64,000 bases of DNA, taken from contig JAUCBJ010007602.1 in assembly GCA_032718475.1 (NCBI GenBank), positions 1-64,000 of the forward strand, written 5' to 3'. The stretch is from Nemertoderma westbladi (lineage: Eukaryota > Animalia > Xenacoelomorpha). Shown here in pieces: positions 12,938 through 64,000 of this stretch. A program made the position numbers and the translations under genes. A model generated the notes under the pieces. The model was given only the letters and a program-made list of their open reading frames with translations. It had not been told where the DNA came from and did no database searches. Position 1 is the stretch's first letter, and each line of letters starts with the position of its first letter.

Positions 12938-15556
12938 CTATTTCTTTCTCTGATACGCCTTTCTCCTCTTCGCCCGTCGACTCTCGTCGATCGCTAGAGC
13001 TGGTAGAGGAGCGTCAACATCCATCGTGAGCAACGCTTCGGCTTGTCTCCTGGCGGCTCTTCCTTTCGATGGCAACGGGATCATATCGGTTCGTCGTTCC
13101 AACTCGGAGTTGCGAGCCTCAAGGAACCACTCTCCATCACCGAACTCCTCTTTATATGAGTATAAGCGTCTAAGGACTTCGAATGGGCCGAATAATCAGG
13201 CGCTCAGCAACAGATCCACGTAATGGAAAGGTAGTGTTGCCATCGTATGGAGGCGCTCCGGGAAGGAAAAATACCCGCACGCCATCTCCTGCGCGATATT
13301 CCGAGCGTTTCTCCGCACTTTGGTCCTTATGTGGCTGTTTGCGTATGTTTCGAACATGACCATATTTCCCATAGCGGTAACATCTTTTGTAGGACATTTT
13401 ATATAGCAGCGGGGGCTAGCGGAATGTCCACGGAAACCGCACGTAGTGCAGAGGTTATAGAGGATCGGACAGACTGAAACATCGTGGCCCGATGTCGCGC
13501 AGTATGGGCAATAAAGTATCCCGAGGAGCTGGAGGCACGAATCGGTAACCCGATTTCGTCTACCACGTGGGCACTGCTCCGAACTGCAGTTACCGCACAC
13601 CTCCTACTGCATCTCTCGACCGGGGAATATCGGAATCGGGACGCCGACGTAATACTCGAGTCGTCGGTCGCTCTTTTGAATATTTGCGGTGGCCGGTAGC
13701 CCGCGGAAGGCTGGGCTTTTGCGTAGTAGGTCCTCGCTCCGATAACCTTCTTTATGTCCTGTCGGTCTCAACTCGGACGACCGTTTCTGGCGGTGGATCC
13801 ATTCGGTCTGCTCGGCGTACCAACGGGTTAGTCGCATAGGATCCTGTGGAACGGAGGGGGTAGTAGTCACCGCTGGTTGGCGAAGAGGTGCCGGGGCTTT
13901 CGACAGAGGGATTCCGAGGAGATCGTTGGGAGTCGGCGCAGCGCTGGGACCCTTTTCAACCAGTATCACTGAACGGGACCATTGAGTGCTGGTACTCGGA
14001 ATCTCCGAAGACCAGTCTTCGCCACCCGGGAAAGGATATGGGGATAACCTTTGGCATATGTCGCCGAAGTCGTTTAACGCGAAGGTAGTAACTAACTCCC
14101 TTGCAGGGCTACCGGAGCCGAGTGGTGTGGTAATGCCCGCTTCCGTCGCAGGTTCGGCAGAGGCAACCCGTTTGGCTGCCGGTTGGTAAGCGGCTTCTGG
14201 CTCGAGTTGTCGCTTCGGGGTGGAGAGTAGAACGCCCTCATGTAGCCATAGTTCTTCCCCTTCCGAAGAAATCAGAGGCTCTTCCGCCCCGAGAAGATCG
14301 GTAATTGTAGGGATGTCGTAGGGTCCGTTCTCATCCCAGGAATCGATAACGGCGAGCGTTTTCATCTCTCCCGGTGTGATGTTCTCGACCGCTTTGAACG
14401 CGTGCTTTATAACCTCGTTCCAGTCGTAGTCGACAAAGGAAAGAGGAACCGCCGTAATGAGGTTATTGAGGGTTTTACAGATAAACTTAGCGACGGTGTA
14501 TGATTCCATAACGACGTAGATGTAGTTCCGTCGATCCGGATTTTCCCACCTTTGGTGTATCGTCCACTTTCTCTCAACGTCCTTCCATCGACCCTCTCGC
14601 TCGCTCTTTATTTCCAATCCCGGGTATCCACCATATATCTTATTATAGTCCTGGAATTTCTGAGGTTTAAAGTCGATGCCGCCGTTTAGCACAGCGAGGT
14701 AGCCGATCCCGGATTTCGTTTGTCTAACCTCGCGGAATCCTCGCATGAATTCGGCGGATCGTAACCAGGCTAGAAGTGTCTGGGTGTTGATGCAATGACT
14801 AATGGCATTGAGATCTCCTTTGCGGTCTCTTCCTAAAGGAGCGTTCGCGTAGTCGTTCCGGACATCCGCTTTTATATCCGACCCGATTTTAATGACGTCG
14901 AAGTCGAAGAGGATCTTTTGGAATTCTGGAGGTAGCAACCAGATCGCTCCGGCTGCCTGCACTTCCTGTCTGGGTGTCGGAAATATTCGACACACCAATA
15001 CCAAACCGTCCAGGGTTCCGAGGACGACGACCAAGGATCGACCATATTCTTTCGCCCCGTACTTCTCCTGGTAGTCGTCGTGATTCTGGATGATCGATAT
15101 TCGTTCCTCTCGTAGCGTCGCCGTACACTCCGCTAGGTTTCCCCAGTGGGCGAGGTACGTACTCTTGTCGTCGACGAAACTTTGACATCGCGCCAACGTC
15201 ATCGCTTTCGAGGTGGGCGTCGCGTTTCCCTCGTTGTCGTATATCAAACATCGGGATCTGTAGATGCTTTGCCGAAACGTTTCCCAATACGACAACTCAT
15301 CCCCTCCGGTAGCCTTTGCGTTCCGAGTTCTTTTCAGTCTCGTACTAGCATCGGCCAACCGGAGGGCTCGTAGATTCCGGGAATCCGGTCCCTCTCGCCC
15401 GGAGAATTTGACGACTCACACATTCTCGTTTATCAGGGTGCTCCAATTTGTATCAAAGTTAGGGGCTCCGGGTTGTGGATATTCCAGTAGATCTATCGTA
15501 TTACGTAATTCGCCGATAATTTGGCGATTTGGGTCCATATTTACAATTATGTCCAT
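12938..15556 (-). pseudogene. Env-position accessory ORF of BEL-1: DEDDy-like 3'-5' exonuclease plus zinc knuckles, about 872 aa, broken by three in-frame stops
   Basis: One reading frame from ATG 15556 to TAG 12938, with stops at 15416-15418 (TGA), 13604-13606 (TAG) and 13196-13198 (TGA). Motifs: LIYDNEG; LPPEFQKILFDFDVIKIGSDIKADV; KSGIGYLA; YIYVVMES; CPYCATSGHDVSVC; CTTCGFRGHSASPRC; basic tail RRAKRRKAYQRKK. Confidence 0.8.
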
Positions 15557-16781: not shown

Positions 16782-17653
16782 TTACACGGGTTTAGCATTG
16801 TCACCAATGTCTGCAGCAGGATCCTGAGTAGGGAACTTATCACCTCTCGTAGAGTAACCGCTGTCATTGCCTTCGAGAAGGCACAGCCTCTGGATAGGGC
16901 GTTGGTAGTGGCCCTTTGCCGTTCGTATCGTCACAGTCCTCGCAAGTCCGTCTTTGCTTGGTTGTATTGCCACGACTCGCGCCACAGGCCAGTGGATGCG
17001 GTCTTTGAGGTCTTCTTTGACCAGCACCATGTCGCCAACTTCGACATTCCTGTAGGTGTTGTTCCACTTCCTCCTGGTCCGGAGGGTTATGAGGTACTCC
17101 TGGGCCCAGATTCTCCACCAATGCGCTGCCAACGCTTGGGCCTTCTTCCAGTTAGTATGTCTTGCGATATCGTCGGAATCCGGAAACATCGTCTCTGGGA
17201 GAATATGGGTTTTGGGTCTTCCCAGTAGGTGGTTAGGAGTGAGGGACTCAACCGAGGCGTTCGCCATCCGGGTATTACGGCAGATTATTCCATACTCTCC
17301 CATTAATGGTGTCAATGTTATCCACGTCATTATTATCATCAAAAACATTACTAGCCACCAAAGCATGGGCGAGCACCAATGTCCGTCTTTGAACTTGGCC
17401 TGGTCAAGGACGTCCATACAATATTGATCCTCCTCGGACGGGTTTTCGTCTTTTCAGCGAACTCTTGGGTCTCTAGATTAAAGTATTTAGTCATCTCTTG
17501 CTGGGTTTTCTCGGTCTCAAGAAACAAATCCTCGTCAAGGTCTGTAGCTGAACAATAACGCACGGATGTTGCATTCTCTTTAATCTGACATTTAGGAAGG
17601 TATGTATAGGTGTCAGTAGTCTCTTCCTTGATGCCGCAGAGTGTCCATCCCAT
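16782..17653 (-). pseudogene. BEL-1 pol remnant: post-protease region joined to the integrase C-terminal (DUF5641-type) domain
   Basis: GWTLCG...KYFNLE and KDGHWCSPMLW run almost directly into LTPNHLLGRP...WKKAQALAAHWWRIWAQEYL...GDMVLVKE...WPVARV...DGLARTVTIRT...RPIQRLCLLE. No YxDD, RNase H or DDE core is present. Confidence 0.9.
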
Positions 17654-17695
17654 TATTGTTCGTTCAGCGTAAAAGCCATTATCCTGCTTTATAGA

Positions 17696-20637
17696 TCAGG
17701 CGACGTCTCCGGTGGGTATGTGTAATTCCGGTGTATCAAGTCCGATCAGTAGGGTGATGCAGTTTACATCCAACGGAAGGCACCTAAGGTCTACATCGTC
17801 TCGGTCCAATTGTATGAGGGGGGCGTACTCGGCTGATTGTCGGAACCGCACTCGGAGGTCTGTGTGTACCAAGGCGTTCTTGATGGTCAGCTTAACCGTC
17901 TCGTAGCCCTTCATTACTTCTTCCATCTGGAGCTGCACCTCCCCGGATTCTACCTCTCTGTGGTCGGTAATAGTTTGTATGGGCCGTTTGCAAGGTTCAT
18001 AGTCTAGGCCGAGTTGCTCGAGGAAATCCCGGTCGATGATGGTTCCGTCCGACCCGTTATCAAGGAACGCGAGCGTTGTCAAGGATTTACCGACCCCTTG
18101 AATTCTTACTGGGATTACTTTGGCGAAGACCATGTAACGGCGATTTATAAGGTTGATCATGGCCGAGATATTTGTCACTTGTGATGCATCGGTGGAGGTT
18201 TTAAATGGGTTGGTTTCTCTCCGTTGGGTCGTCCGGGTTCCTTTAGAAACGTGGTTTGTTTCTCCTCTTCGTTTGGCTTCAATCCGAAAGGGGAGGGTGG
18301 TGAAGTCAAAGTTCGCGGGGATGTGGAGGAGCATGTGATGACGTAGGTCGTTACAGACCACACAGCATGATCTTTGGTCGCAATCCCGAACATAGTGACC
18401 TGTTCCAAGACACCGGAAGCATCCTCGGTGTTTCATTATCGCCTCGAAGCGTGGGACGAGTTCGGCAAACTGGAACTTCCTGCAGAATTCCACTTTATGT
18501 TTCTCTCCGCAGAAGAAACATATAGGGGAGGCTGTGGTGCCTTCCCTTTCGGGTGCCCAATTCGCTAGGTAGCATGCCCATTCTTCTGCTAAGGTCGGTT
18601 CCTCGTAATCCTCATCATCCGAGTCCTCGGCCATACTGACGGCCATCGTACTCACAGGAGTAGGGCAGAATCTTGGGTTTGGAGTGGGTGCCCTGGTAAT
18701 TGCTCTCCATCCCATCCAATTTGGAGAGACTCTGTTTGGAGAACATGGGGTCGTTCATGGCCTCTGATATATCTTCTATGAATGCCGACATTTCGAGGAA
18801 ACTGGGATCTCGATCTGGGTGTCTGCGTCGGAGATCTACGCATTTATACGCCCACTTACTTTGCAGCCATCCGGGGAACTTTCGGGCGATCTGTCGGAGG
18901 TTTAGAATGTTGTTTACTTGTTCCTCCTTATTTAATGGTCTTAGAGTGTAGTAGGCATCCTTCATGGAATCTGAGAATTCCTAGATATTTTGTGGGTCCC
19001 CTAGGGATCCCGCGTCCTGTATCAGTTTCTCGAGAGTTTTATTAATTATAGTCCCGATATTTCCGTATCTTTTATCTAGAGTTTTCCATGCGTCATAGTA
19101 TGCCTCATGAGCTCCTCCCTCGAAGCATGCGATAATCCGACGTGGTTTGTCGCCCAGGTATTGGGATAAATATACTAACTTTTGTGCATCGGCTATGTCC
19201 GTTGATCCAATCTGCACGAAAAACTGTTTCTTGAATCTGAGGTAATCGACGGGATCTCCTTCGAAGGTGCGGATCTCCATCTTGGGCATGGCCAGTCGGT
19301 TCTCTAATGCCCGGATGATGCCAACGTCGTCTGAACCGGAATGACTAGGAGGGTTATAATTATCGGCACTCTCTCCCATACACGATGGATCGATGATAGG
19401 TGGAGTTTTAATGATGACGCGGCTACGGATTTGTGGTGCAGATGTAAACGGGTTGTTGGATTGGGGAGTGGCGATCCGTTCCGAGTCCTTTTCAGGCTCG
19501 TACTTGGGGACGCTCGGGACCGTGGGATTAGCTGGGATATAAGGTTCCTCATTCTTCAACGTAACCGGTGGGGGATGGAATACCGGTGCTTGTGCCGATA
19601 ACGTAGACTGTATGATAGGCAGGAACTCGGGTTTCGGGGGTTTCACCGTCGGTGTCGTTAATGACCTCTCTAATTCTGGTATCGGTATTGGTTCATAGTT
19701 CAAATCTATATCCCTTTCCCAGTCCTCGTATAGTTGAATATCTCGTTCTATAACTGTGGCTTCGTATTCCGCGAGTTTCGCAATATCCGCATTCTTTTTG
19801 TGTATGAGAATCGCTTGGGCCTCGGTGTGTTGTTTATGCATTTATGCTTCCCATTTACGTTGTTCGATCTCTTGTTGGGCCTCTCGTCCACGTTGTTCAG
19901 CTTCCTGTTCACGTTGTTCGGTCTGCCATTTGGCCTCTCGCCTATGTTGTTCAGCTTCCTGTTCACGTTGTTCGGCCTGCCGTTTGGCCGCTTGCTCGGC
20001 CTCTTGTTTTTGCATTTCGGCGGCTAATACATCTTGCTCGGTTCGCAGTTGAACATACTCATCTTCCATCCGAGCTTTGAGGGCTAATGCCTTCTGTTCT
20101 CGTAGCTGATCTCGGAGTGGCTTACCCCCTTGAGAACTGCGCGCTGAGCCGGATATCTCGCTCCTAGCGCTGGAGTGCTGGTGTCTTGAGGACCCCGTTC
20201 TCTTTCGATGAATTGTGGTCCTGGTGTTGGAGGTTCGCACTGATTCTGCGTCTGTTCTTTCAGCTCTCTTGTAGTACTGTTCCTCGTAGCCTCTCACGAA
20301 GCTGAGGGTCCTCCGGTATTGTTTGCGGAATTCGTCTAGGCGTGCAACGTGTTCTTCCAATTTGGGGTAGTTTACCTGGTCGGTGGCGGGGATGAGTTCT
20401 CGGTACGCCTGTATCATTCTCTCATATTGTTGTAAGATACTTCGGATATTCTGAAGCTGAGTTTGTATCTCGTTGAGAGGGGTTTCGACTCCATTGAGTT
20501 GTTTCTCTATACGTTGATACGCTCGAGTGACTCCGCCCTAGTCGACGGGCCATGTTCTTGACGTTCGGTACCTCGTCGGCTTCCGAGTCTGTGTGGTGGT
20601 CCATCTCATCGGTATCGGATACGTTATTCGTCGTCAA
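17696..20637 (-). pseudogene. BEL-1 gag-protease region, disrupted by stops and frameshifts
   Basis: Coiled coil (19842-20417); DUF1759-type PKMEIRTFEGDPVDYLRFKKQF...KLVYLSQYL; three BEL-type knuckles (CFFCGEKHKVEFC, CFRCLGTGHYVRDC, CVVCNDLRHHMLLH); protease AFLDNGSDGT and LLIGLD. Confidence 0.92.
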
Positions 20638-21033: not shown

Positions 21034-22524
21034 TGTTGCCGTTATTCCCGACACCATGGGGGAAAAACGCCGATGCTGGAGGCGGAACTTTACAGACCAC
21101 GGAATCCCGGCCAGTCACCGGATATTGATTGTGGAGAAGGAATAATTTCTTAGATGCAAGATTGCGGTTGAGAAAAAGCTGCATTGGTTGGATATATTCT
21201 TTAATGTAGTTAATCTCACTGAACCCTGATTAAGAATAAATTGGGCTTCCCCAAATCAATATACACCAAATTATTCACAATAATAATACACGACAATATA
21301 AATCCCTACAGTAAATTATTTAATTACCCACTGTTCGCTCAGATTTTAGCCTAACTAATGTTCCCCAGATTTTCCCTCGGTCCTAGTCTTGGTGCCGTAG
21401 TGTCGGTGTCGGTCGACCCTGTCGCGTGTCCGTCCCACCCCTCCAGAACCCCGAAGGGATCGATCATCGAGAACCAGTACGGCTTGGCTAAGGGTCGGTC
21501 CAGTCGGTAGACTCTGTCGCGTATCCGTACCACCCCTCTCGAACCCCGAAGGGATCGGTCATCGAGAACCAGTACGGCTTGGCTAGGAGTCTGTTGTGTC
21601 GGTGGACCCGTTTGCGTGTCTGTCCCACCCCTCACGAGCCCCGAAGGGAACGATCATTGAGAACCAGTACGGCTTGGCTAGGGGTCCGTCGGTTCATCGC
21701 AGAGACCCAACCACCTAGGCTTTCCGAGACCTTATTCAGGCTCGTAGTCGTTTCGGCAGCCGAGAAACTGCTCCGAACAGTCGGTAGGCCAGTAGAGTCC
21801 AGTCCTCTGTCTTTCAACCCCGTCGCGTGTCCGTCCCACCCCTCACGAACCCCAAAGGGAACGATCATCGAGAACCAGTACGGCTTGGCTAAGGGGTCTG
21901 TCGTCGGTTCCCATCGCAAATCCCTGGCACAAGCAGCAGACTTTCCGATGTCCTTTTCAGGCTCGTAATAACTGCTGTTGACCAGAGACCGCTAAGGGCA
22001 GTCCTCGTCAAACCCTTCCTCTGTTAGTCGGCCGCCCTTTCGCGTGTCCGTCCCACCCCTCGCGAACCCCGAAGGGATCGGTCATCGAGAACCAGTACGG
22101 CTTGGCTAAGGGGGCTGTCGTTTCCCGTCGCAAATCCCTGACACAAGCAGCAGACTTTCCGATGTCCTTTTCAGGCTCGTAATAACTGCTGTTGGCCAGG
22201 GACCACTAAGGGCAGTCCTTGTCCTTTAGACCTAGCGAGTTACCAAATCCACCTCTACAGGCAGCAGGAAGTTGGCTAAGCCTAATAGTAGTCAGGTAAA
22301 CCTGAATACTGCTTAACTTTGCCTCCCACCCCTGGCCCTTATAAATATGAAATGAGTCCCGTACCCAGTAAGTCGCCCCAATATTCGCCCATAAATCGCC
22401 CCCAGTTCATAGAGTGTGCCCAAAACCCGTGGTCCCGCACCCAGTAGTGATATCGGAATAATCATTTTAAATAAATACAAAAAATATTCAACTCGCGTTA
22501 TGAAAAGTTGAAATACCGCGAACA
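21034..22524 (-). repeat. 5' LTR of BEL-1
   Basis: TGTTGCC...GCGAACA, with TG..CA ends. Confidence 0.95.
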
Positions 22525-28060: not shown

Positions 28061-28130
28061 CTTCGAAGCAGTCATCATCAACATCACTGACTAGTCAGAT
28101 GTCTAGTAAGATATAATCCCCCAGTAAACC

Positions 28131-35327: not shown

Positions 35328-35790
35328 TTGCAGTTTGAGATTAGTTTAGTCACCTGTGGTAAATATAACTCATTACCAATCTTGATATGGTTTATACAAA
35401 AGTTATCACCATAATTTGTTTTAGGTTGAGTTTTACAAAATTGGCGAGTGTATATAATATCTTTCGATTGAATTAATCTATCATTTGCACAATCAATCAG
35501 CATATTATAATGTTTCATAAAATCTTTTCCCAATAATGGTTCTGTCACTTCAGCTATAAAGAAAGTCCAATTAAATGTTTGGTTTGGAAACTCTTGAATT
35601 GTAAATGAAAGGTTTTTTCTAGCTATAATTTTTATTGGAGTTCCATTAGCAGCCTTTAAATTAAAATCTGGAGGAGAATAACAATCAGAAGTGGCATAAC
35701 TTAATGGTAAGCAACTGTACCATGTACCACTATCTGCTAAGAAATGACCTATTGGGTGTGCGGTGACATAAATTGAATTTACTCCGACGG
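35328..35790 (-). CDS. Gypsy pol 5' part (aspartic protease), in a different frame from gag
   Basis: HFLADSGTWYSCLP and EPLLGKDFMKHYNMLID. Ends at ISNCK, where the LINE is inserted. Confidence 0.85.
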
Positions 35791-36957: not shown

Positions 36958-37420
36958 TTTTCTTTTTTATCTTTGTCAGGTTGTAGGGCAGTAGGTAGGC
37001 AGTTAGGGTAGGTTTCCCAACTGGTGGTAGGCCAGTATGCAGTAGGCAGATTGTTGTATCAGCCCCTGTCCGTATATATCATAATGCAACAGCAGGCTGG
37101 CAGGCCTATTACAATATCATAATACAGCAATATTACAATCAAAATTTCGCTTTTTTTTTCGAGTATTTTTTTTAGCGGCCTACCGGTACTGCGGTAGTTT
37201 GAATATTTTATTGACTGATTGAGTCAGTAGGCAGGTAGGCCTAATACCGGGTAGCTATTATACGGTATACGTCACTGTAGCATTCAGTCGTCTTACCATA
37301 CACAATGCAGCAATGTATAATTGTAGTTTTACAGGTTCCGAATGCAATTTTCCAAGTTTAGTTGTGTTGACCATTGTTCAGTAGTTCCTCTACATTTCAT
37401 CGCTCGCATCCTGTCGCATC

Positions 37421-42420: not shown

Positions 42421-42986
42421 TTATCACTCCACTCTTACTTTGGAAGCGTGACTTTGGTCGATTGAAACTCTAATTTTGGGTTTAGCTGGCCGTCATGTTA
42501 TATGCAATACTCTGAAATTAATAGTTTTACTCCTAATCTGAAGGTGTCTAAGTAGTATATTTTGCATTGAATTCACATCTCTTTGGAGGTCGTGGGTTCA
42601 AACCCGCATAGGCCAGTGCAGTTTTAGTTTCGGCACGAATGCTTTGAAGGGACTAGCCAGTGCACAAATCTGCCTTGCATCCTTAAATTGTAGCATTTAA
42701 TATATAACATTTAATATAATAGTTACTGTTTAACATGAAATTTATTAATAAAAAATAAATAATTAAATTAAATTTTTTTTAATTGAATTGTAATTGTTTG
42801 GTTTAATTTAAATAAATTATATGGAATATATTAAGAGTAAATTGTGTTATTGATGACAGATAATTATCTAATTATGATTTCGTATAATGGATGATCGATT
42901 GATTGTAAATACAAAGTAAATTATAATAAAACATATTTTATTACAACTGAAAGCGCCGAGGTTTGTAATAATAAAACAGGTCAATA

Positions 42987-47480: not shown

Positions 47481-48208
47481 AAAGTTAACACGAACTGAAA
47501 TCCAGTAATGATAAGTATACTCTCTATAGCTGAGTAGGGGCACTTACTCCACTCGGTGGTACTCGTCTCATCCCGACCTATATATAATCATGGCCCTCTA
47601 CCCAATATGTATATAACATGCGAATAAATCAGTATGCGTACAGGCGTATCAGCTACAGGATTGTCATACTCGTGCGTATACGAGATTTAATGAGGGATCT
47701 CATGCAACTGGTATCATTCTGAGAAATGGATGGGTTCCAGTATCCTAGCGAGGCATCTATAACACCAACTCTTCTGGGAAAAAGTCAGTATATCCTATAG
47801 CTGATTGGAGCACTCATAGATTGATGTAAATTAATCTTCAAAACCCCATACAAATATCATGGACCTCTACCACTGCATTATATGGTCGAGAAGCCAAATC
47901 CTTGATATCTCAGTCAATACTGTATAAATATTTCAAACACCATTCCAGAAATGGATTTCATTGGCTCAATTTTCATTCAATAGTCATTCATTATATTGGG
48001 TTATGCCCCATAATCATTTCATTCCGGTGTAGAATTTATCTATTATACTAGCAGGCAATACCCGAGGCGGATTACCCGGTATTTCCCACTACCGGTATAG
48101 GCCTACTTGCGTACCGGTACTTGTATAGGCCTACCGGCGTACTGGTATCTGGGACCATTTATTTGCATTATGCGTTATTTGCATGGAGCCCTACTGTTAC
48201 CTCCCAGT

Positions 48209-51200: not shown

Positions 51201-54200
51201 CTAAACAACGTTATGTATATATGTGTCTCCTAAACAACGTTATGTATATATGTGTCTCCTAAACAACGTTATGTATATATGTGTCTCCTAAACAACGTTA
51301 TGTATATATGTGTCTCCTAAACAACGTTATGTATATATGTGTCTCCTAAACAACGTTATGTATATATGTGTCTCCTAAACAACGTTATGTATATATGTCT
51401 CCTAAACAACGTTATGTATATGTCTCCTAAACAACGTTATGTATATGTGTCTCCTAAACAACGTTATGTATATATGTTTCCTAAACAACGTTATGTATAT
51501 GTGTCTCCTAAACAACGTTATGTATATATGTCTCCTAAACAACGTTATGTATATATGTCTCCTAAACAACGTTATGTATATATGTCTCCTAAACAACGTT
51601 ATGTATATATGTGTCTCCTAAACAACGTTATGTATATATGTCTCCTAAACAACGTTATGTATATATGTCTCCTAAACAACGTTATGTATATATGTATCCT
51701 AAACAACGTTATGTATATGTGTGTCCTAAACAACGTTATGTATATGTGTCTCCTAAACAACGTTATGTATATGTGTCTACTAAACAACGTTATGTATATG
51801 TGTCTACTAAACAACGTTATGTATATATGTCTACTAAACAACGTTATGTATATGTGTGTCCTAAACAACGTTATGTATATGTGTCTCCTAAACAACGTTA
51901 TGTATATGTGTCTCCTAAACAACGTTATGTATATATGTATCCTAAACAACGTTATGTATATATGTGTCTCCTAAACAACGTTATGTATATATGTCTCCTA
52001 AACAACGTTATGTATATATGTGTCTCCTAAACAACGTTATGTATATATGTGTCTCCTAAACAACGTTATGTATATGTGTCTCCTAAACAACGTTATGTAT
52101 ATATGTCTCCTAAACAACGTTATGTATATGTGTCTCCTAAACAACGTTATGTATATATGTATCCTAAACAACGTTATGTATATGTCTCCTAAACAACGTT
52201 ATGTATATGTGTCTCGTAAACAACGTTATTAATATATGTCTCCTAAACAACGTTATGTATATATGTCTCGTAAACAACGTTATGTATATGTGTCTCCTAA
52301 ACAACGTTATGTATATATGTATCCTAAACAACGTTATGTATATGTCTCCTAAACAACGTTATGTATATGTGTCTCGTAAACAACGTTATGTATATATGTC
52401 TCCTAAACAACGTTATGTATATATGTCTCGTAAACAACGTTATGTATATGTGTCTCCTAAACAACGTTATGTATATGTGTCTCCTAAACAACGTTATGTA
52501 TATGTGTCTCCTAAACAACGTTATGTATATATGTCTCCTAAACAACGTTATGTATATGTCTCCTAAACAACGTTATGTATATGTGTCTCCTAAACAACGT
52601 TATATATATATGTTTCCTAAACAACGTTATGTATATGTGTCTCCTAAACAACGTTATGTATATATGTATCCTAAACAACGTTATGTATATGTCTCCTAAA
52701 CAACGTTATGTATATGTGTCTCGTAAACAACGTTATGTATATGTGTCTCCTAAACAACGTTATGTATATATGTCTCCTAAACAACGTTATGTATATGTGT
52801 CTCCTAAACAACGTTATGTATATATGTATCCTAAACAACGTTATGTATATGTCTCCTAAACAACGTTATGTATATGTGTCTCGTAAACAACGTTATGTAT
52901 ATATGTCTCCTAAACAACGTTATGTATATGTGTCTCCTAAACAACGTTATGTATATGTGTCTCCTAAACAACGTTATGTATATATGTCTCCTAAACAACG
53001 TTATGTATATGTGTCTCCTAAACAACGTTATGTATATATATGTCTCCTAAACAACGTTATGTATATATGTCTCCTAAACAACGTTATGTATATATGTGTC
53101 TCCTAAACAACGTTATGTATATATGTGTCTCCTAAACAACGTTATGTATATATGTGTCTCCTAAACAACGTTATGTATATATATGTCTCCTAAACAGCGT
53201 TATGTATATATGTCTCCTAAACAACGTTATGTATATGTCTCCTAAACAACGTTATGTATATATGTGTCTCCTAAACAACGTTATGTATATATGTGTCTCC
53301 TAAACAACGTTATGTATATATGTGTCTCCTAAACAACGTTATGTATATATGTGTCTCCTAAACAACGTTATGTATATATGTGTCTCCTAAACAACGTTAT
53401 GTATATATGTCTCCTAAACAACGTTATGTATATGTGTCTCCTAAACAACGTTATGTATATATGTATCCTAAACAACGTTATGTATATGTCTCCTAAACAA
53501 CGTTATGTATATGTGTCTCGTAAACAACGTTATGTATATATGTCTCCTAAACAACGTTATGTATATGTGTCTCCTAAACAACGTTATGTATATGTGTCTC
53601 CTAAACAACGTTATGTATATATGTCTCCTAAACAACGTTATGTATATGTCTCCTAAACAACGTTATGTATATGTGTCTCCTAAACAACGTTATGTATATA
53701 TGTTTCCTAAACAACGTTATGTATATGTGTCTCCTAAACAACGTTATGTATATATGTATCCTAAACAACGTTATGTATATGTCTCCTAAACAACGTTATG
53801 TATATGTGTCTCGTAAACAACGTTATGTATATGTGTCTCCTAAACAACGTTATGTATATATGTCTCCTAAACAACGTTATGTATATGTGTCTCCTAAACA
53901 ACGTTATGTATATATGTATCCTAAACAACGTTATGTATATGTCTCCTAAACAACGTTATGTATATGTGTCTCGTAAACAACGTTATGTATATATGTCTCC
54001 TAAACAACGTTATGTATATGTGTCTCCTAAACAACGTTATGTATATGTGTCTCCTAAACAACGTTATGTATATATGTCTCCTAAACAACGTTATGTATAT
54101 GTGTCTCCTAAACAACGTTATGTATATATATGTCTCCTAAACAACGTTATGTATATATGTCTCCTAAACAACGTTATGTATATATGTGTCTCCTAAACAA

Positions 54201-56559
54201 CGTTATGTATATATGTGTCTCCTAAACAACGTTATGTATATATGTGTCTCCTAAACAACGTTATGTATATATATGTCTCCTAAACAACGTTATGTATATA
54301 TGTCTCCTAAACAACGTTATGTATATGTCTCCTAAACAACGTTATGTATATATGTGTCTCCTAAACAACGTTATGTATATATGTGTCTCCTAAACAACGT
54401 TATGTATATATGTGTCTCCTAAACAACGTTATGTATATATGTGTCTCCTAAACAACGTTATGTATATATGTGTCTCCTAAACAACGTTATGTATATATGT
54501 CTCCTAAACAACGTTATGTATATGTGTCTCCTAAACAACGTTATGTATATATGTATCCTAAACAACGTTATGTATATGTCTCCTAAACAACGTTATGTAT
54601 ATGTGTCTCGTAAACAACGTTATGTATATATGTCTCCTAAACAACGTTATGTATATGTGTCTCCTAAACAACGTTATGTATATGTGTCTCCTAAACAACG
54701 TTATGTATATATGTCTCCTAAACAACGTTATGTATATGTCTCCTAAACAACGTTATGTATATGTGTCTCCTAAACAACGTTATGTATATATGTTTCCTAA
54801 ACAACGTTATGTATATGTGTCTCCTAAACAACGTTATGTATATATGTCTCCTAAACAACGTTATGTATATATGTCTCCTAAACAACGTTATGTATATATG
54901 TCTCCTAAACAACGTTATGTATATATGTGTCTCCTAAACAACGTTATGTATATATGTCTCCTAAACAACGTTATGTATATATGTCTCCTAAACAACGTTA
55001 TGTATATATGTATCCTAAACAACGTTATATATATGTCTCCTAAACAACGTTATGTATATGTGTCTCGTAAACAACGTTATGTATATATGTCTCCTAAACA
55101 ACGTTATGTATATGTGTCTCCTAAACAACGTTATGTATATGTGTCTCCTAAACAACGTTATGTATATATATGTCTCCTAAACAACGTTATGTATATATGT
55201 CTCCTAAACAACGTTATGTATATGTCTCCTAAACAACGTTATGTATATATGTGTCTCCTAAACAACGTTATGTATATATGTGTCTCCTAAACAACGTTAT
55301 GTATATATGTGTCTCCTAAACAACGTTATGTATATATGTGTCTCCTAAACAACGTTATGTATATATGTGTCTCCTAAACAACGTTATGTATATATGTGTC
55401 TCCTAAACAACGTTATGTATATATGTGTCTCCTAAACAACGTTATGTATATATGTCTCCTAAACAACGTTATGTATATGTCTCCTAAACAACGTTATGTA
55501 TATGTGTCTCCTAAACAACGTTATGTATATATGTTTCCTAAACAACGTTATGTATATGTGTCTCCTAAACAACGTTATGTATATATGTCTCCTAAACAAC
55601 GTTATGTATATATGTCTCCTAAACAACGTTATGTATATATGTCTCCTAAACAACGTTATGTATATATGTGTCTCCTAAACAACGTTATGTATATATGTCT
55701 CCTAAACAACGTTATGTATATATGTCTCCTAAACAACGTTATGTATATATGTATCCTAAACAACGTTATGTATATGTGTGTCCTAAACAACGTTATGTAT
55801 ATGTGTCTCCTAAACAACGTTATGTATATGTGTCTACTAAACAACGTTATGTATATGTGTCTACTAAACAACGTTATGTATATATGTCTACTAAACAACG
55901 TTATGTATATGTGTGTCCTAAACAACGTTATGTATATGTGTCTCCTAAACAACGTTATGTATATGTGTCTCCTAAACAACGTTATGTATATATGTATCCT
56001 AAACAACGTTATGTATATATGTGTCTCCTAAACAACGTTATGTATATATGTCTCCTAAACAACGTTATGTATATATGTGTCTCCTAAACAACGTTATGTA
56101 TATATGTGTCTCCTAAACAACGTTATGTATATGTGTCTCCTAAACAACGTTATGTATATATGTCTCCTAAACAACGTTATGTATATGTGTCTCCTAAACA
56201 ACGTTATGTATATATGTATCCTAAACAACGTTATGTATATGTCTCCTAAACAACGTTATGTATATGTGTCTCGTAAACAACGTTATGTATATATGTCTCC
56301 TAAACAACGTTATGTATATATGTCTCGTAAACAACGTTATGTATATGTGTCTCCTAAACAACGTTATGTATATATGTATCCTAAACAACGTTATGTATAT
56401 GTCTCCTAAACAACGTTATGTATATGTGTCTCGTAAACAACGTTATGTATATATGTCTCCTAAACAACGTTATGTATATATGTCTCGTAAACAACGTTAT
56501 GTATATGTGTCTCCTAAACAACGTTATGTATATGTGTCTCCTAAACAACGTTATGTATA
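48209..56559. repeat. 27-bp satellite (25/27/29-bp variants), about 310 units
   Basis: Unit CTCCTAAACAACGTTATGTATAT(A/G)TGT. Length variants differ by dinucleotides. Confidence 0.99.
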
Positions 56560-58573
56560 TGTAATTGAAGAGATACGCCTATTCCTACTATTGGAAGAGA
56601 CGGTAACAATACCTGCAATATCCTACTGTAAAGTTTGTAAATCAAATCATAAATCCGACCTTCTCACCAAAACAGTAAACTCTAAGTAAGCGAATATATT
56701 GCAGTATCGATCTCTTATAACCGGTGAGGCAGAAAACAGTCTACGAGCAGACAAACTTCGATAAAACAAATCCCGCGCAGCGAATCCTAAAATCAGGCTG
56801 ACTCACTGACGGACTAAGAGGCTCGTATACTTTGCCGCGGTGTGATTTATATGGTTGAGCAAAGGGGCGCTAGCTAGGTATAGAGCAGATATTTGGAGAT
56901 GTCTAACTAGCGGGCAAAGCACAGTACGGACTAAGTTAATTTTATATATTTCGAGGTGTAAATAATTTCTAACGCGCGTGTGTTAATTCTGAACGGTCAA
57001 AAACAGTTTTGCTCCTTCACATATATAATTACTGGGTACGGTGTGCATTTACGAATATTCTAATTTTGTAACTTGTAGGTCCAATACTCACGAATGATAA
57101 GGTCCCTTCCCCTCTTGCGTATTTCCAGGACTCAAATTCAGGCATAAGGTTAATACTACGCCCAGAATTCGGCAATTTTAGGTACCAGGTCCCTGATACT
57201 AAGAAGAGATGTGTTAGTTTACTACTGTAGGCGTACGGGTACTAATAGCTATCCTGGCTCCTATCTAGAATTCTAGTCACCCAGGTAGTCCGGGTAACTT
57301 CCTATTAGGGCGTTGGCGGGGACACGGTAGATGTTAGTATATCCCTGATAGCCTCAATTTATTTGCGCCTAGTGTAAACTGCCCTACCGCCTGAACGGTA
57401 CAATCCCAATTCAGGTGAAAACACAGCAACCCCCCTAGCCTACAAGTTCTGATGTAATGGACACTGTTGTACGGCAAATAGTCGCACACACACCTGTACT
57501 TAGCAAGAGTTAAGCGTACAGTTTGCTGCACCCTAACCAATGTGTATGCCTTGTACCGGTGTGCCTACGTCCTATCTGCGTACTAGTATCTGCTCTCTCT
57601 CCCTCCCCCGTAGGAATGTGAAGGTCTACTGTGGGTTTTCCTGAATCAAGACAGTACAGTCCCTATGATGTAATTTTAGGCTTGCAGCGTGTCACTACGT
57701 CTACCTCTTGATCTTTTGGTCTTATACTTAGGTAGCAAGGATCGAACGCTGTCTAACCTTTCAGGCGATGGGCGAATAACTCTAAGATGGTATTGCGGGT
57801 TGTCTCTCGTCTACATTCCCGTGATGTTCCCGTTCATTGCTGCGGCCCGATCTCTAGCCGGCCATCCTGTCCCTGAGTTTGTTCACCGTAGTGAATTCAT
57901 AGTAAAACAGAAAAGCTGAGAGAATATTCTGACTTTATTACAGAAGACACAATTATAATACAATGTAATCTGAGAATAAACTAAGCACGACAGAATAAAT
58001 CTGAGAAGTATAGATTGAAAATTGAAGATAGTGTGAGTGATAACTAATGAACGAATCGCACCTTTATATACTAAATTTGTGCTGCAATCAATCGAGAAAA
58101 TTCTCGATTGTTCTATGGGTTCTAACAAGGTTTTAAAGATAGCTTATTGGTCCAGCTAATATATAACTTGCACGACATTGGTTACAATCAAATAACTACA
58201 GCCTTATTGGTACAGACAAATGCAATTAATTTGTAGCGGTTAATTTAAATGAGTTGAAATTCTGCACAAAAAATAATTCGCACTTACTAGGATTCGAACT
58301 CGATACCTACTACACATATAATTTCCAACGCTCTACCAACTGAGCTACTGAACCACTTGACCGATAGATACACAATAGATAGAACCAATACTAATGAGAA
58401 CTCAAAGCAATCTTTACAAAGTTAATTCGAATAAAATAAAATTTTGAAAATCCACGGCATTTAGGGAATATAATTCTATACCGCTCCATGAAAACAGGAT
58501 ATTATCGTGCATAAAAATATACGGTTTTCACCAATAATCAATCAAACTATAGAATACTTAGGGCGTACTTACA
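56560..58573 (-). repeat. Putative 3' LTR of BEL-2 (inner boundary uncertain)
   Basis: TGTAA...TTACA inverted ends. On the minus strand: three CCAAT boxes (about 58147-58212), TATATAAA (about 58063-58070), then AATAAA (about 57934-57939). No clear PPT next to 58573. Confidence 0.5.
58287..58354 (-). other. tRNA-derived sequence with Pol III A and B boxes (not a canonical tRNA)
   Basis: GGTTCAGTAGCTCAGTTGGTAGAGCGTTGGAAATTATATGTGTAGTAGGTATCGAGTTCGAATCCTAG. The D-arm and T-loop are intact; the acceptor and anticodon stems do not pair. Confidence 0.7.
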
Positions 58574-59178
58574 TATTTACAATTAAATTTCAAACAATAC
58601 TTCCTTTCTACGTAATGATTCGATACAAAATAATTACAAATTCAAACTTTACGTATTTAAGGCTTTACTAAGTAAGTACAATATAAATCTAAATTAAATT
58701 CACCAATATAAATCTATTGCATCTCAATATTGCATAAATTTAAACAATTACAAATACAAATAAATGAAAACAATAAGAAAGGCTCGCGAGTCTTCCATCT
58801 ACTATTGCATCCCAAATATTGCATAAATTCAAGTAATTACAAATACTTTCGTACCTAAATGTAGATTGCATAAGTTTGGAATAATTACAAATATGAGTCT
58901 TTCTGAGCACAAAATTTTCCATCTATAAAACTTTCTATTTCACTGTAAATACAAATACTGCTTATAAAATATAAATTGCATAATATTCGGAACTCTTTAG
59001 GTAAGTTCGGAATAATCACAAATATAAAATATAAATTCTTACAAATATAAATCTTTCAAATATAAGTTCCTTCTAAATATAAACACTTAAATTTTCTAAA
59101 TATAAAACATATAATTCAAAATAAATCACTAATCATAAGAAAGGCCCACGAGTCTTCCGTCCACCCTTGCCCTCCCTT

Positions 59179-62100
59179 TTATCGCTTAGTAGATCGAGCC
59201 CTGCCGCGTCCTCGAAAACTGCGCACAGGTGACTTTGCTCGCGATATGGGACTTGTGGGGCGAGTCACTGGTTTACTTGGGACGTTGAGGGACGGTGCGA
59301 CTATTTCCTCGCAAATTCGTCTATTTGGCATCCCAAAACCTCGACCAATTCCTCGTGACCGATCAGTTGTCGCTACAGTTGGTAGAACGTCTGGGAACTC
59401 GCGAAAGGCGGACGACGCAGACCCAAGAGTAGCTTGCGCCCCCTGTTGATCAGCTGGTGTATGTCCCGATCCTCCTACCGGTTCTCTTGGAAGTGATACC
59501 GTATCCCGAGTAACTCGAATAGTCGGCTCAACTCCCTTGCGTTCTTCTACATTAATAATTTTCTTTAATTGTTGGCCCACTTTCTGGACCCGTATGATCC
59601 TACCCTGTCCGTCCTCCCGAGGGTGACGTGCAGACGGCGCAACCGGAGTGGCTGATATATTCGTCGCCTCTAGGACCTCCTCTTCCTCGAATACGCTCGC
59701 TCGTATACGTTTGTGGTAAAACGCGGCTCGGTACGCCCATGCGACGGTTAACCAAGCTCCCTTGTTCCGCTTTTCAGTTCGGAAACGATCGAATTCACCA
59801 TACGTAATCCGATTAACGACTTTCTGAAAATTCCACGTGTTTTTGTTATCTGGGTGAATCTGTAACAGATACTCGCGCACCACTCGGAATCCGCTGTCGT
59901 GGGGCAAAATATCAACAACCTCGATAAGTTCGTCATATTGGGGCATAGCGGAGATATATCCTTCCGACATCATCGTCTGAGGGTTTACCGCCCAAAATCC
60001 GAGATGCGCTCTCATCGGAAACCGTCTTCTCTGTGCCGATACATGTTCGTCGGCTAAATCTTCCCACTCATCAAATAACTTCCTCACAAGTTTTACAGAT
60101 TCGTGTTCATAAGGTATATCTCTCAGTTGGCATTCAGATGCTCGATGTCCCTTTATATTGCAGTAAGTACATTGAGCCATAAATCTCCAGCAAGTATAAA
60201 AGGTATGAGACCCTTGATCCCCACACCATCCACAGATTAGCTGAGTCGTAGTAATGTGCTTTCCACTGCACTTTGCCATATGATGTCCAGCGACGCCACA
60301 TTTACTACACATCGTATTGGCAGGGTACCACACTCGTTCGTATATAAGATCTCCAATCGGTCGAGCGCTTCCTCCCATACTATAATCGTAATCATCTGGG
60401 TCTATGGGTTGGTAGGTTTCTGAAGGTTGTAGGCAAACTATAGCATCTGTTGCTTCAAGTTGTCGAATCTCCGTCTGAGATTTCTTCGGGAGGTTCCTTT
60501 CAATCTCAAGAAGTTCCTCTAAAGGATCGTCGGCGATCGTAGTAGTTACTTCGAATTCATCACCAAGGTGACCGATAGGCGCGCGCGTCTGCCGTGATTC
60601 ATCCGTAATTTCCACGATACGTTCTCCTTCATAGGGTAACAATGTAAACATAGATGGTCTTTCGATAAGAGATCCCGCACAGCGAAGATACACGTCTCGA
60701 AATATGCTAAATCCTGCTCGAGTAAAGGCATTACACTGAGCGTCGGAGTTGTAGAAGGGTTCAAGGAATCGTCTAAACACGTCGGTACGAATTCTCCCTT
60801 CCATGTAGAACGTATGATCTTCTCCGAGACAAAGTGGATGTCTTTTGAGAGTCCGAGACACAATGTCGGCGATTAGGCAAACATTCACTGACGACTCTAT
60901 CGCTAAATAATATTGTAAGACCGCTCTTGGAGGTGACGTAATAGCCCAATACACGCATCCTCTCCATTTAAGCTGTGATTCAAACTCACTCATATCTGGA
61001 GTATCACCTTCTCCATAAGTTTCAATATACTTGTTCCTTTTACCTTCCTTATAATCCCAATTGAATAACAGGTAGGAAATGTATCCAGTTCCAGTCTTCT
61101 GAGTATTATACTCACGAAAATATCCCTGTTCTATAGACCACAGAATAAGAGGTCGAGTGTCGACGTATGGTGTCGGTAGTCGGTCATCGCTGTCCGTCAT
61201 GCCGGCGAAGTCGCTAATTAAATCCTCCCTTACTCCTGATCCAACCTTTACAACAGTTTTATCTAAAATCATGTTTCTTACCATCTTCGGTAACATTCTA
61301 GCGTCAATATTACAAGCTTGGTCCATCTTCTTTACTATATCGGTGATAAGATGGTGTCGCTTTGTATTCGCTGGAGGTATCGGCATTCGTTTGTCGCTCC
61401 TCTGTCTACTGAAAACGTGCAGAACTCCGTCCGCCGCTCTAATCTGTATAGTCTTAGAAGTCAAACTTTGCTGATGACTGCCGCCCTCGTTATCGTAAAA
61501 CATATAACCGTTTTCCTGAAACGATCTAAACGTCCTAGTCCATTCATCCAACAATTCTTCCGAAGGTTGCCAAATCTTCTCTATATCCTTATCCTCATCG
61601 AAACGAATAACCTTACCTCGCCAATCTGCGGCAATATCCGTATCCGACTCGAAGGTTCCGATTCCAATCCATAAACGAATCGTCTTGGTTAGATATCCTT
61701 TCAGATTACTCGGAGCTATGTCGGCACCAGCTCTATCCAGTTCCTTAAAATCTTGGATATGAGGTGGAACGTTGTTCACGACCTTTTGAGTAATATGTCT
61801 ACGTAAATCATATATCTTACTCATATCGCTGAAAACAACTGCAGGAAGAAACTCCAAGTTTGAAATGATTTCTGGATGATCCACGATGGGTATTTCGTAC
61901 GTCGTATCCTGTCGGACTGGTATACTAATAGGGAAATTGAGTGTCGTACTCAATGGTTTCGTAGCTGAAGTACTATACGGTTGCATTTCTCTTGGCCTCT
62001 CCGGGGATGCAATCTGTAATCTCTGAATAACGTTTTGAGCAAAGTTTATGCTCTCGAAAACTTCCGGTGTCATCTCCTTAGCTGAAGTTTGATCGTGTGA

Positions 62101-62904
62101 CGTCCAATGGCAAGGTAGGCTCGCGAGTCTTCCACCCCATTCTTCCATCTCACCTTTCTCGAAAGCCTTGTAGGCTCTGTATAGGCTAAGAGCTTCTTTC
62201 TTTTCGCGGGTTGACTGATTCGCCTCGTCCAGCGTAAGTTCAAATACATCGGGTTCAACAACCTTAGGTGGGTAAATGACAGTTTCTCCCGCCTTTGGTC
62301 CGGTCATAGCAAATGAATGATATGGATTCGATAAAGGATACCCTCCTTCCTGGTAGCGTAGTTGTTGATGATTCGAACACCTCGCCAATATCGGTTCGGG
62401 ATTTTCCTTATTCAAACGCATCGGAATCGCATTTCGTTGTTCGCGCATACAAGAACCGCATTGATAATAAAGTTTATAAACTGAAAATGCTTCCTTGGTT
62501 TCTCTATCGTCCCCTCGAGTTCGTCTGTAAAGATGCATTCCATCGAATTCATCGCGTACCGCGGGCATAGGTTCGTGCGCCTTTAGGTATTGCATGGTAT
62601 GATACAAACGACTAATTTCAGTATCGGGGTCTTCGCTAATGTCTCCCGTATCACACAAAGCATCGTACGGGTAAAGTTCGTTGAAGGTTTGGCGCAAACT
62701 TTCGATTCTTTCGTTTAATGCGTTTTGCCTTCTCTTTAATACATTCGAGTCATATTTAGTTCTCGCGAGTTTCGCTGTACTTTCCGATAATTCTTTTATA
62801 CCAAATATAGTGTAATCCTTGGCTCCAAATCTTTCGAATGGCGCTGCTGCCTCCTCTTGGATATCATATCCCCATCTCGGCTCTCCTTGTATCCCTTTCT
62901 CCAT
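59179..62904 (-). CDS. Env-position accessory protein of BEL-2: DEDDy-like 3'-5' exonuclease plus three zinc knuckles, 1241 aa, intact
   Basis: ExoI YMFYDNEG; IQIRAADG; ExoII LPKMVRNMILDKTVVKVGSGVREDL; YVDTRP; KTGTGYIS; ExoIII-like QYYLAIES; CSKCGVAGHHMAKC, CGWCGDQGSHTFYTC, CTYCNIKGHRASEC; RG-rich basic tail. No signal peptide or TM segment seen. Confidence 0.85.
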   Translation of the reverse strand: MEKGIQGEPRWGYDIQEEAAAPFERFGAKDYTIFGIKELSESTAKLARTKYDSNVLKRRQNALNERIESLRQTFNELYPYDALCDTGDISEDPDTEISRLYHTMQYLKAHEPMPAVRDEFDGMHLYRRTRGDDRETKEAFSVYKLYYQCGSCMREQRNAIPMRLNKENPEPILARCSNHQQLRYQEGGYPLSNPYHSFAMTGPKAGETVIYPPKVVEPDVFELTLDEANQSTREKKEALSLYRAYKAFEKGEMEEWGGRLASLPCHWTSHDQTSAKEMTPEVFESINFAQNVIQRLQIASPERPREMQPYSTSATKPLSTTLNFPISIPVRQDTTYEIPIVDHPEIISNLEFLPAVVFSDMSKIYDLRRHITQKVVNNVPPHIQDFKELDRAGADIAPSNLKGYLTKTIRLWIGIGTFESDTDIAADWRGKVIRFDEDKDIEKIWQPSEELLDEWTRTFRSFQENGYMFYDNEGGSHQQSLTSKTIQIRAADGVLHVFSRQRSDKRMPIPPANTKRHHLITDIVKKMDQACNIDARMLPKMVRNMILDKTVVKVGSGVREDLISDFAGMTDSDDRLPTPYVDTRPLILWSIEQGYFREYNTQKTGTGYISYLLFNWDYKEGKRNKYIETYGEGDTPDMSEFESQLKWRGCVYWAITSPPRAVLQYYLAIESSVNVCLIADIVSRTLKRHPLCLGEDHTFYMEGRIRTDVFRRFLEPFYNSDAQCNAFTRAGFSIFRDVYLRCAGSLIERPSMFTLLPYEGERIVEITDESRQTRAPIGHLGDEFEVTTTIADDPLEELLEIERNLPKKSQTEIRQLEATDAIVCLQPSETYQPIDPDDYDYSMGGSARPIGDLIYERVWYPANTMCSKCGVAGHHMAKCSGKHITTTQLICGWCGDQGSHTFYTCWRFMAQCTYCNIKGHRASECQLRDIPYEHESVKLVRKLFDEWEDLADEHVSAQRRRFPMRAHLGFWAVNPQTMMSEGYISAMPQYDELIEVVDILPHDSGFRVVREYLLQIHPDNKNTWNFQKVVNRITYGEFDRFRTEKRNKGAWLTVAWAYRAAFYHKRIRASVFEEEEVLEATNISATPVAPSARHPREDGQGRIIRVQKVGQQLKKIINVEERKGVEPTIRVTRDTVSLPREPVGGSGHTPADQQGAQATLGSASSAFREFPDVLPTVATTDRSRGIGRGFGMPNRRICEEIVAPSLNVPSKPVTRPTSPISRAKSPVRSFRGRGRARSTKR

Positions 62905-63561
62905 AATTAGGGTGTAGTTACATAATCATTACTACTAGAGGGAATACAACAGAGTTTGTAGTTAGTTGTGAGGAGACGTGAGAGTTTCGTCTGCCCTTTG
63001 GGCTCGACAACGCTCTAACCTCCTACCCATAGCCTAAGATCTAGGGTTTCTTTAATGACACGCTGCTTCTTATCTAAAATTTTTGCCGAAATAAAAACGA
63101 ATTTGGGCTAAACTGGCCGTGAGTCTAAAATACTCACTTTTTGATCCCAAACTATTATCAGAAAATAAGCAGTCAAGAATTAGTAATAAATATAGGGGAG
63201 TCTATTTTGACGTAACTTATTGAAACAAGACCGTGTAAAATTTTATTAAAATTTTAAGAAAGGCTCGCAAGTCTTCCTCTCTTGTTTCTCTAATTTTAAG
63301 TTCCACCCGACTGTACCCTGAAATCTATTCACTGGAGAAATTTTTAAAAATTTTTCAAATCCAAATGGATTGTCTAAAATTTCGAAAATGTCTCAATATT
63401 GTGAGTTCCAAGTAGAATTCCATTTCTTATACCTACAAATCCCGCTCCTATGTGACACATAAGGGTACTACCCTCAATGTTCACATATAAAGACAATGGA
63501 ATTCTACCGCTGTCCTTACTACGGTGTACAGGTACGTGGAAATCTATTTGTAAACTTCTAA

Positions 63562-64000
63562 TTATTTACTTGTATTAGGTGGAGATTTGTAGTCTCCAGA
63601 CTCGTTACGAGTTTCTTCAAGAAGTACGAGACGTTGAGTCGGTCTGTCTACTGTACGACCGTCAATTGTCCGTACTGTCACAGTTCTTGTCACTCCATCC
63701 ATAGATGGATGTGTGGCTAAAATGACACCTGTTATCCAGAAGCGTCTTTTTAGATTCACTTCTGCCAACAGCACGTGATCTCCCGGCTTTAATGCGCGGG
63801 TGTTATTGTACCATGTTGTTCTGGCAGAAATAGAGGGCAAATAATGGTTTTGCCATATTTCCCAGAATTTGTTAGCCAGTAGTTGCGTGATTTTCCACGC
63901 TTTTCTACCGTAACTGTCGCTTTCTATTGGAATAGAAATCGGCGTTAATGTCGTCGGTGCCTGCATAAGCAGGTGTGCCGGTGTTAAAGCAAACTGGGAT
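63562..64000 (-). CDS. BEL-2 pol C-terminus (integrase C-terminal, DUF5641-type), partial
   Basis: ALTPAHLLMQ...WKITQLLANKFWEIWQNHYL...PGDHVLL...HPSMDGVTRTVTVRT...RPTQRLVLLE. Frame open to the window edge. Confidence 0.92.
   Translation of the reverse strand, partial: SQFALTPAHLLMQAPTTLTPISIPIESDSYGRKAWKITQLLANKFWEIWQNHYLPSISARTTWYNNTRALKPGDHVLLAEVNLKRRFWITGVILATHPSMDGVTRTVTVRTIDGRTVDRPTQRLVLLEETRNESGDYKSPPNTSK

Follow-up and report, generated by a model that had tools for sequence, protein, structure and literature searches.

We describe a third gene carried by two retrotransposons of the BEL/Pao type in a stretch of 64,000 nucleotides from the xenacoelomorph Nemertoderma westbladi (GenBank assembly GCA_032718475.1, contig JAUCBJ010007602.1, positions 1 to 64,000), referred to as the window throughout. 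In the first of them, element A, the gene codes for a protein of 1241 amino acids (aa) that combines a predicted 3'-5' exonuclease with an array of zinc knuckles, and the second, element B, carries a homolog. The data support a third gene of a BEL/Pao lineage, standing in the envelope (env) slot of two divergent families and kept by selection.

The third gene and its place in two elements

The window holds the 3' end of element A, while its 5' long terminal repeat (LTR) and its gag-pol lie beyond the window edge. Its parts are as follows.

63562..63999, minus strand: end of pol, BEL/Pao integrase C-terminus DUF5641 (Pfam, E 2.3e-22)
62905..63561, minus strand: non-coding gap of 657 nt from the pol stop to the start of the third gene (from the frames)
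59179..62904, minus strand: third gene, 1241 aa plus stop (open reading frame list, motif scan)
60826..61584, minus strand: predicted DnaQ-fold 3'-5' exonuclease domain, aa 441–693 (D471, E473, D561, Y666, E670)
60130..60309, minus strand: three CCHC-type zinc knuckles, aa 866–925 (motif scan; homologous to those of element B and of the public protein P0003)
about 58480..56560, minus strand: probable 3' LTR of ~1.9 kb (loose contig end, signals, CA end)

Shuffling the third-gene region 200 times gave no frame longer than 174 aa, against the 1241 aa of the real one. From its N- to its C-terminus the protein comprises a 440-aa N-terminal part, the nuclease domain, an acidic linker, the three knuckles, a short, conserved helical/GF segment and a basic tail, with lysine or arginine at 10 of the last 30 residues. 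A sequence-only reading of this DNA had described an env-free frame behind the integrase end, with nuclease motifs in a set order (DxE, Q-strand, LP..V, xDT, GxxxL, YxxxE) and three CCHC-type knuckles, and all of this was borne out. DUF5641 lies upstream; the motif scan gave YDNEG at 470 (D471 and E473), IQIRA at 486 for the Q-strand, LPKMV at 538, GSGVRED at 555 (which gives D561), VDT at 581, GTGYISY at 605 and YYLAIES at 665 (Y666 and E670), all in the order that reading had given. The knuckles, found by pattern, are spaced CX2CX4HX4C at 866, CX2CX5HX4C at 891 and CX2CX4HX4C at 912; Pfam zf-CCHC matches them with E 0.025, below its cut-off. Env features are absent from the protein: there is no membrane segment (best 19-residue hydropathy 1.38) and no RxK/RR furin site, nor does any viral glycoprotein family of Pfam match it. 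The same reading called the exonuclease intact. The frame is open and the motifs are kept, but the last catalytic residue is an E where a D would be expected, and because of this residue the nuclease of element A can be called intact only presumptively. The N-terminal part matches nothing in element B or Pfam; it has a CxxC...CxxH pattern at aa 149–179 and a probable coiled coil at aa 40–75.

The 3' LTR of element A is placed indirectly because the window holds no LTR pair for this element. Its edge is set at 58480, where two contigs of DNA run X2 come to a loose end; CCAAT occurs in it three times, with TATA at 58070 and AATAAA at 57939, and its CA end abuts a 27-nt satellite. No clear polypurine tract was seen ahead of 58480. 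Summed contig depth, which does not equal copy number, is higher over 56560–58550 than over the open reading frame. A candidate splice acceptor near 62944–62932, a pattern match only, lies in the gap between pol and the third gene.

Element B spans 22524 to 11276 on the minus strand, and measures 11.2 kb even without reverse transcriptase and RNase H.

21035..22524, minus strand: 5' LTR, 1490 nt (LTR pair)
16782..20537, minus strand: gag-pol, interrupted by stops and changes of frame (DUF1759, knuckles, aspartic protease, DUF5641)
13604..15415, minus strand: third gene, nuclease part, open frame of 603 aa (D60, E62, D184, Y300, E304)
13196..13603, minus strand: third gene, knuckle part, continuing the frame past a single stop codon
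11276..12759, minus strand: 3' LTR, 1484 nt (LTR pair)

The two LTRs are identical at 1455 of 1484 aligned letters and start with TG, the 5' copy ending with CA and the 3' copy with CG; the target duplication ACCGG is present at both flanks, and a G-rich polypurine tract precedes the 3' LTR. Pfam matches in gag-pol are DUF5641 (E 1.9e-29), DUF1759 (E 7.7e-9) and the protease (E 2.5e-5), and no match was obtained there for the reverse transcriptase, RNase H or integrase-core families. The third gene, whose 603-aa frame has no ATG before residue 72, sits between the integrase end (DUF5641) and the 3' LTR. As this element has both LTRs with the homolog in the env slot, the position of the third gene is settled. 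DUF5641 and DUF1759 are markers of BEL/Pao. By DUF5641 in both and DUF1759 in element B, the two elements are assigned to BEL/Pao (Belpaoviridae); DUF1759 also appears in the drawing of the Caenorhabditis element Cer19 (PMC7084138).

The third genes of A and B are 28% identical over 103 aa (E 4e-9), their nuclease domains 24% identical in an alignment, A2, of the nuclease regions of A, B and P0003, and the knuckles of element B, two in number, are homologous to those of element A (E 2e-6). The integrase ends are 41% identical over 133 aa, which makes A and B distinct old families with a common third gene. P0003 is a public protein of 558 aa (ENA) that has the nuclease motifs, the knuckles and the segment past them, and matches the element A protein over aa 536–1015 (E 5e-12). 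It came from a search of 50%-identity clusters (1.84 billion representatives) that gave three hits, of which P0002 and P0004 were dropped because they match the knuckles only. A word-index protein search in one length class found nothing for aa 330–960 of the element A protein, nothing for A2 and only P0003 for A1. No relatives of the protein were found in viral contigs, JGI metagenomes or phage records, nor, at a useful E, in 201 bacterial genomes.

Several smaller features of the elements deserve mention. A 17-nt motif, GGAAGACTNGNGRGCCT, occurs in four copies, with 0 expected, all in one orientation and all within element A (63277, 62133, 59158 and 58796, minus strand), that is, ahead of the third gene, within it, right past its stop codon and in the 3' untranslated region. 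As the palindrome CTCGCGAG is present in two of these copies, the motif is perhaps a DNA-binding site; an RNA hairpin was ruled out (z -1.4 to +1.0, no common hairpin). A deletion class, drawn from a joint skipping 58756–63255 in X1 and X4, was dropped: one side of the joint has 21 letters and falls on the repeated motif. In the U3 of the element A LTR, a tRNA-like A box and B box lie 48 nt apart (58347–58291, minus strand), possibly a captured tRNA or the head of a short interspersed element (SINE); ARAGORN and Rfam call none in this LTR. In element B the primer site (21031–21020) is complementary over 12 nt to position 1279 of the element's own 3' LTR (about 11481–11470), a match seen in 0 of 500 shuffles and with one mismatch in the 5' LTR copy, a signature of self-priming. 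Typical BEL/Pao elements have LTRs of 0.2–1.2 kb, a genome of 4.2–10 kb and a tRNA-complementary primer site (PMC8742986), typical rather than strict values from which element B departs with its 1.5-kb LTRs, its 11.2 kb and a primer site complementary to its own LTR. Inside its LTRs an 88-nt unit is arrayed five times, at a spacing of 95–217 nt (11600–12460 and 21370–22230), and a repeat starting GTAGGCGGTGTAACTAG is found in three copies (16100–16490, minus strand) in the 1366-nt gap before the third gene.

Selection on the third gene

Element A is covered, at 80–100% identity, by many contig pieces in three DNA runs, which belong to three studies under the same organism label, and one of which may be the source of the window. 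Variants were called from these contigs over 861 nt of the nuclease region, at a share of at least 1%, and the best-supported 40 of 88 were scored individually. These 40 comprise 28 silent changes, 12 replacements and no stop. The expected silent share is 0.21–0.29 against the 28/40 observed, with p from 4e-11 to 1e-7, values that are too strong, given the linkage between the sites and their choice by support. Catalytic codons are changed by two of the 40, both silently, and no insertion or deletion reaches a 1% share in the 861 nt. Among 40 variants shown from a wider call, 12 fall inside the frame, 8 of them silent, and 3 of the 4 replacements lie within the last 160 residues; the insertions and deletions shown (12 of 50) are all outside the third-gene frame. 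The sequence-only reading had proposed a comparison of replacement and silent rates (dN/dS) across copies, and on the same 40 of 88 variants this gives an omega of about 0.11–0.18, with the silent excess. Copies thus differ mostly by silent changes, so that the element likely needs its third gene, and the data support selection holding that gene in BEL/Pao.

These results bear directly on the idea of a mere passenger, either a host gene caught by chance or a frame that resembles nucleases only by accident. Such a view could appeal to the lack of any single significant family or fold match. An intronless open frame of 3.7 kb speaks against it, and the excess of silent changes together with the recurrence of the gene in the same slot of two families 41% identical in integrase largely refutes it; we give it hardly any credit.

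A predicted exonuclease of the DnaQ fold

The sequence-only reading also named the domain a DnaQ-like DEDDy nuclease. The motifs and structural matches, weak as they are, agree with this; the fold test stays below significance and no curated family passes. The proteins of the window share with EXD2, WRN exonuclease, RNase D and Nibbler (PF01612) the order and spacing of DxE, the Q-strand, LP..L..IL.D..I.KVG.G...D, xD, a GL/GY helix and YxxxD/E. They are unlike them in that they carry insertions of 30–50 aa past the second strand region and ahead of the last helix, show no HRDC domain, have E as the last acid and score below the curated cut-offs. In A2, where D31, E33 and D121 stand for D471, E473 and D561, these three acids are invariant among A, B and P0003, proteins only 24–32% identical, and the ExoI DxE and ExoII D so kept line up with those of PF01612 proteins and of EXD2.

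Searches by profile go the same way. The only match of the A2 profile to PDB sequences at E<=10 was EXD2 (E 1.1), the element A protein alone giving 0 matches; the NCBIfam DnaQ epsilon model touched the first motif with E 0.027. With hhalign, A2 aligned over 151 columns to 16/17 standalone PF01612 proteins, the first four of the motifs falling in register (E 0.005, probability 7%; score 25.9 against a maximum of 19.95 in 40 column shuffles), and over 54 columns to 29/30 RNase D-type proteins (E 0.002, probability 16%). A profile of 16 standalone PF01612 proteins placed the element proteins at ranks 1–3 of 85 frames, and among single E. coli proteins the RNase D and Pol I exonuclease windows took ranks 1–4 of 65 against A2, although at 19.6 they stood barely higher than decoys (18.3).

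Structural comparison used a model of pLDDT (predicted local distance difference test) 38. Foldseek put EXD2 and RICE1 in its top rows (E 0.12–0.4), and a search of BFVD gave nothing under E 0.6. In the VIA comparison, limited to the best 50 rows out of 48,161 chains, 27 align at least 100 residues, and every one of them is a DnaQ-type exonuclease domain, some by their title and others by what is known of the domain (Z 3.0–4.1, root-mean-square deviation 4.0–6.2), while the remaining 23 align 41–67 residues. The evidence for a nuclease is therefore several weak results in agreement. A DnaQ fold of the WRN-exo/EXD2/RNase D kind seems very probable to us, and two-metal catalysis by D471, E473, D561 and E670 would be likely. 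The last acidic motif is YxxxE in A and B and the canonical YxxxD (YLRGD) in P0003, which makes activity likely, as a prediction.

That same glutamate, present in both A and B, invites another reading: a pseudo-enzyme in the manner of Egalitarian or EXD1, in which the nuclease fold would serve as an RNA-binding adaptor that routes the RNA of the element, perhaps to the germ line, and leaves it uncut. Egalitarian and Exd1 do occur among the VIA matches. Yet the three other acids are invariant at 24–32% identity, YxxxD is canonical in P0003, and rotifer proteins with a D-to-E change are considered possibly active (PMC5408684); we regard an inactive adaptor as unlikely. Altogether, none of the three results that would have spoken against the sequence-only reading came up in the searches reported here, namely absence of the fold, on which the test stays below significance, a frame of this kind outside LTR elements and an annotation of the architecture in BEL elements.

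Known systems

Exonuclease genes of this kind have a precedent in bdelloid rotifers. Rodriguez, Kenefick and Arkhipova (2017; PMC5408684) describe an RNase D-like DEDDy ORF3 in Juno1/2, Vesta2/5 and Terminons, including a DEED variant, discuss 3'-end processing and a role in silencing, and state that exonucleases in retrotransposons were previously unreported; later reviews repeat the finding (PMC5718144, PMC6431247, PMC6338049). There as here, a putative 3'-5' exonuclease gene lies downstream of pol in the env slot, free of the transmembrane and coiled-coil features of env, with a D-to-E change in a motif and the same two functional guesses. The concept, which the sequence-only reading did not recognise as described, is thus already in print: DEDDy third genes of rotifer LTR elements anticipate it, both functional ideas included. 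Differences lie in the hosts, rotifer-specific Gypsy-like lineages described beside Mag as against BEL/Pao, and in the protein, that of element A having 1241 aa, three knuckles and E at the last position, whereas no fused knuckle array is described in the passages of that paper covered here. The rotifer proteins were compared with A, B and P0003 by description, their sequences being absent from the search results.

Extra genes of BEL/Pao elements are not limited to env, the only kind known to that reading. Cer19, of the DUF1759 (BEL/Pao) type, carries between its LTRs an additional gene, ORF2, for an expressed zinc-knuckle protein (Fischer and Ruvkun, 2020; PMC7084138), in which respect it resembles element A; unlike here, an exonuclease has 0 occurrences in the passages and two supplements searched, a comparison again made by description. 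Tas, Cer13, Atlas and roo bear an env (PMC8742986, PMC9094657), likewise a third gene that follows pol and precedes the 3' LTR, whereas the protein of element A has no membrane segment or furin site and is by prediction a soluble enzyme. The ICTV (international virus taxonomy committee) profile of BEL/Pao names gag, pol and env only (PMC8742986). Term look-ups in the text of PMC3118150, PMC2774666, PMC13524379 and PMC9094657 gave 0 occurrences of exonuclease or nuclease in the relevant sense.

In the full-text literature, subscription journals, Repbase and Dfam apart, no description of an exonuclease in BEL/Pao elements was found. An exonuclease and a nucleocapsid region in nematode BEL elements are said to have been mentioned by Malik, Henikoff and Eickbush in 2000. 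That the combination of exonuclease and knuckles has already been printed, or annotated in Repbase, strikes us as rather unlikely, if far from negligible. Three things appear to be new: that the host is a BEL/Pao element, that a triple knuckle is fused to the nuclease, and that there is evidence for selection.

Proposed role

The reading that we favour, and hold tentatively, joins three steps. The third gene would be expressed apart from pol through its own spliced or internal message, as suggested by the non-coding gap and the candidate acceptor near 62932. The knuckles, such arrays being RNA binders of the nucleocapsid type, would bind single-stranded nucleic acid and bring the enzyme to the RNA of the element in the Gag particle. 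There the nuclease may trim unpaired 3' ends of element RNA or cDNA during replication. It would take off 3' tails such as the primer, nucleotides added without a template ahead of strand transfer or integration, and cDNA ends that are mispaired. A role in replication is favoured by the size of A and B, both large for BEL/Pao (4–10 kb typical, PMC8742986).

Quite a number of observations weigh against this proposal. Most BEL/Pao elements lack a nuclease gene and yet replicate, so that the role is not essential in general. Element B is broken and non-autonomous, P0003 is known as a protein alone, and an E takes the place of the last acid in both genes of the window. None of A, B and P0003 is matched by PF01612, whether at E<=1 or at E<=10; AlphaFold2 confidence was 31 (single sequence, useless) and 38; the best Foldseek E is 0.12 and the best exonuclease Z in VIA 4.1, none reaching 5; hhalign probability is only 7–16%, with the last motif out of register, and hmmsearch E lies above 0.6, so that no single fold or profile result is significant alone. 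The selection estimate, finally, draws on linked variants, picked for their support and scored singly.

A different use of an active exonuclease would be counter-silencing, the enzyme trimming or destroying host piRNAs, siRNAs or their precursors with knuckles and basic tail binding RNA. The closest structural matches include Nibbler, EXD1 and RICE1, which act in small-RNA pathways, and family A is widespread, with many near-identical contig pieces in three DNA runs. These matches tie, however, with exonuclease domains of DNA polymerases, so that substrates cannot be ranked. Moreover, mature piRNAs carry a 2'-O-methyl group at their 3' end, which blocks such enzymes. A silencing-related role was raised by Rodriguez et al. 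for the rotifer families, which are not consistently high-copy (PMC5408684). We see this as a possibility, but a somewhat unlikely one, though the data at hand favour neither anti-silencing nor a role in replication.

The length of the elements, their LTRs of 1.5–1.9 kb and the fact that exonuclease domains of DnaQ epsilon and Pol I figure in the match lists might further evoke a proofreader, a DNA-editing partner of reverse transcriptase that would preserve the sequence of long elements as ExoN does in coronaviruses. The enzyme is encoded separately, however, and contact with reverse transcriptase is without any support; the 29 differences in 1484 sites between the LTRs of element B reflect age, not fidelity, and Gypsy elements of 25 kb exist without such a gene (PMC9289625). 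This we consider very unlikely.

Other features of the window

Both BEL/Pao elements are inserted in satellites of 27-nt and 47/48-nt units (48100–56560; 22525–28130 / 10900–11275). By eye, a Gypsy-type element lies at 28852–36966 on the minus strand (pol 28852–31842, gag 35779–36966), interrupted by a long interspersed element (LINE) whose plus-strand frame (31754–34993) codes for 1079 aa, and an intronless frame of 751 aa at 42975–45230 has the look of a G-protein-coupled receptor whose third loop is very long. Two frames of 180 and 275 aa at 3–2170 (minus strand) give the impression of a Polinton-like or viral insert.

What the third gene may mean

To our knowledge, reverse transcriptases are without proofreading, and few counter-defence proteins of animal retrotransposons are known. 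Against this background the two elements may belong to an old, undescribed BEL/Pao clade with its own active 3'-5' exonuclease and a second nucleocapsid module, captured independently of the Gypsy-type ones, which would either edit or trim cDNA and primer ends in the particle or destroy host small RNAs; taken as a whole, we find this conceivable but doubtful. Were it true, editing of cDNA or primer ends would make the protein the first proofreading-like factor of a retroelement, and destruction of small RNAs would make it a rare element-encoded silencing suppressor in animals. The intact 1241-aa copy, in a young multi-copy family, offers a direct test object for the predicted activity. The nuclease-knuckle gene of BEL/Pao, parallel to the third genes of Gypsy-like elements in rotifers, suggests that two superfamilies of LTR retrotransposons have repeatedly gained the same tool.

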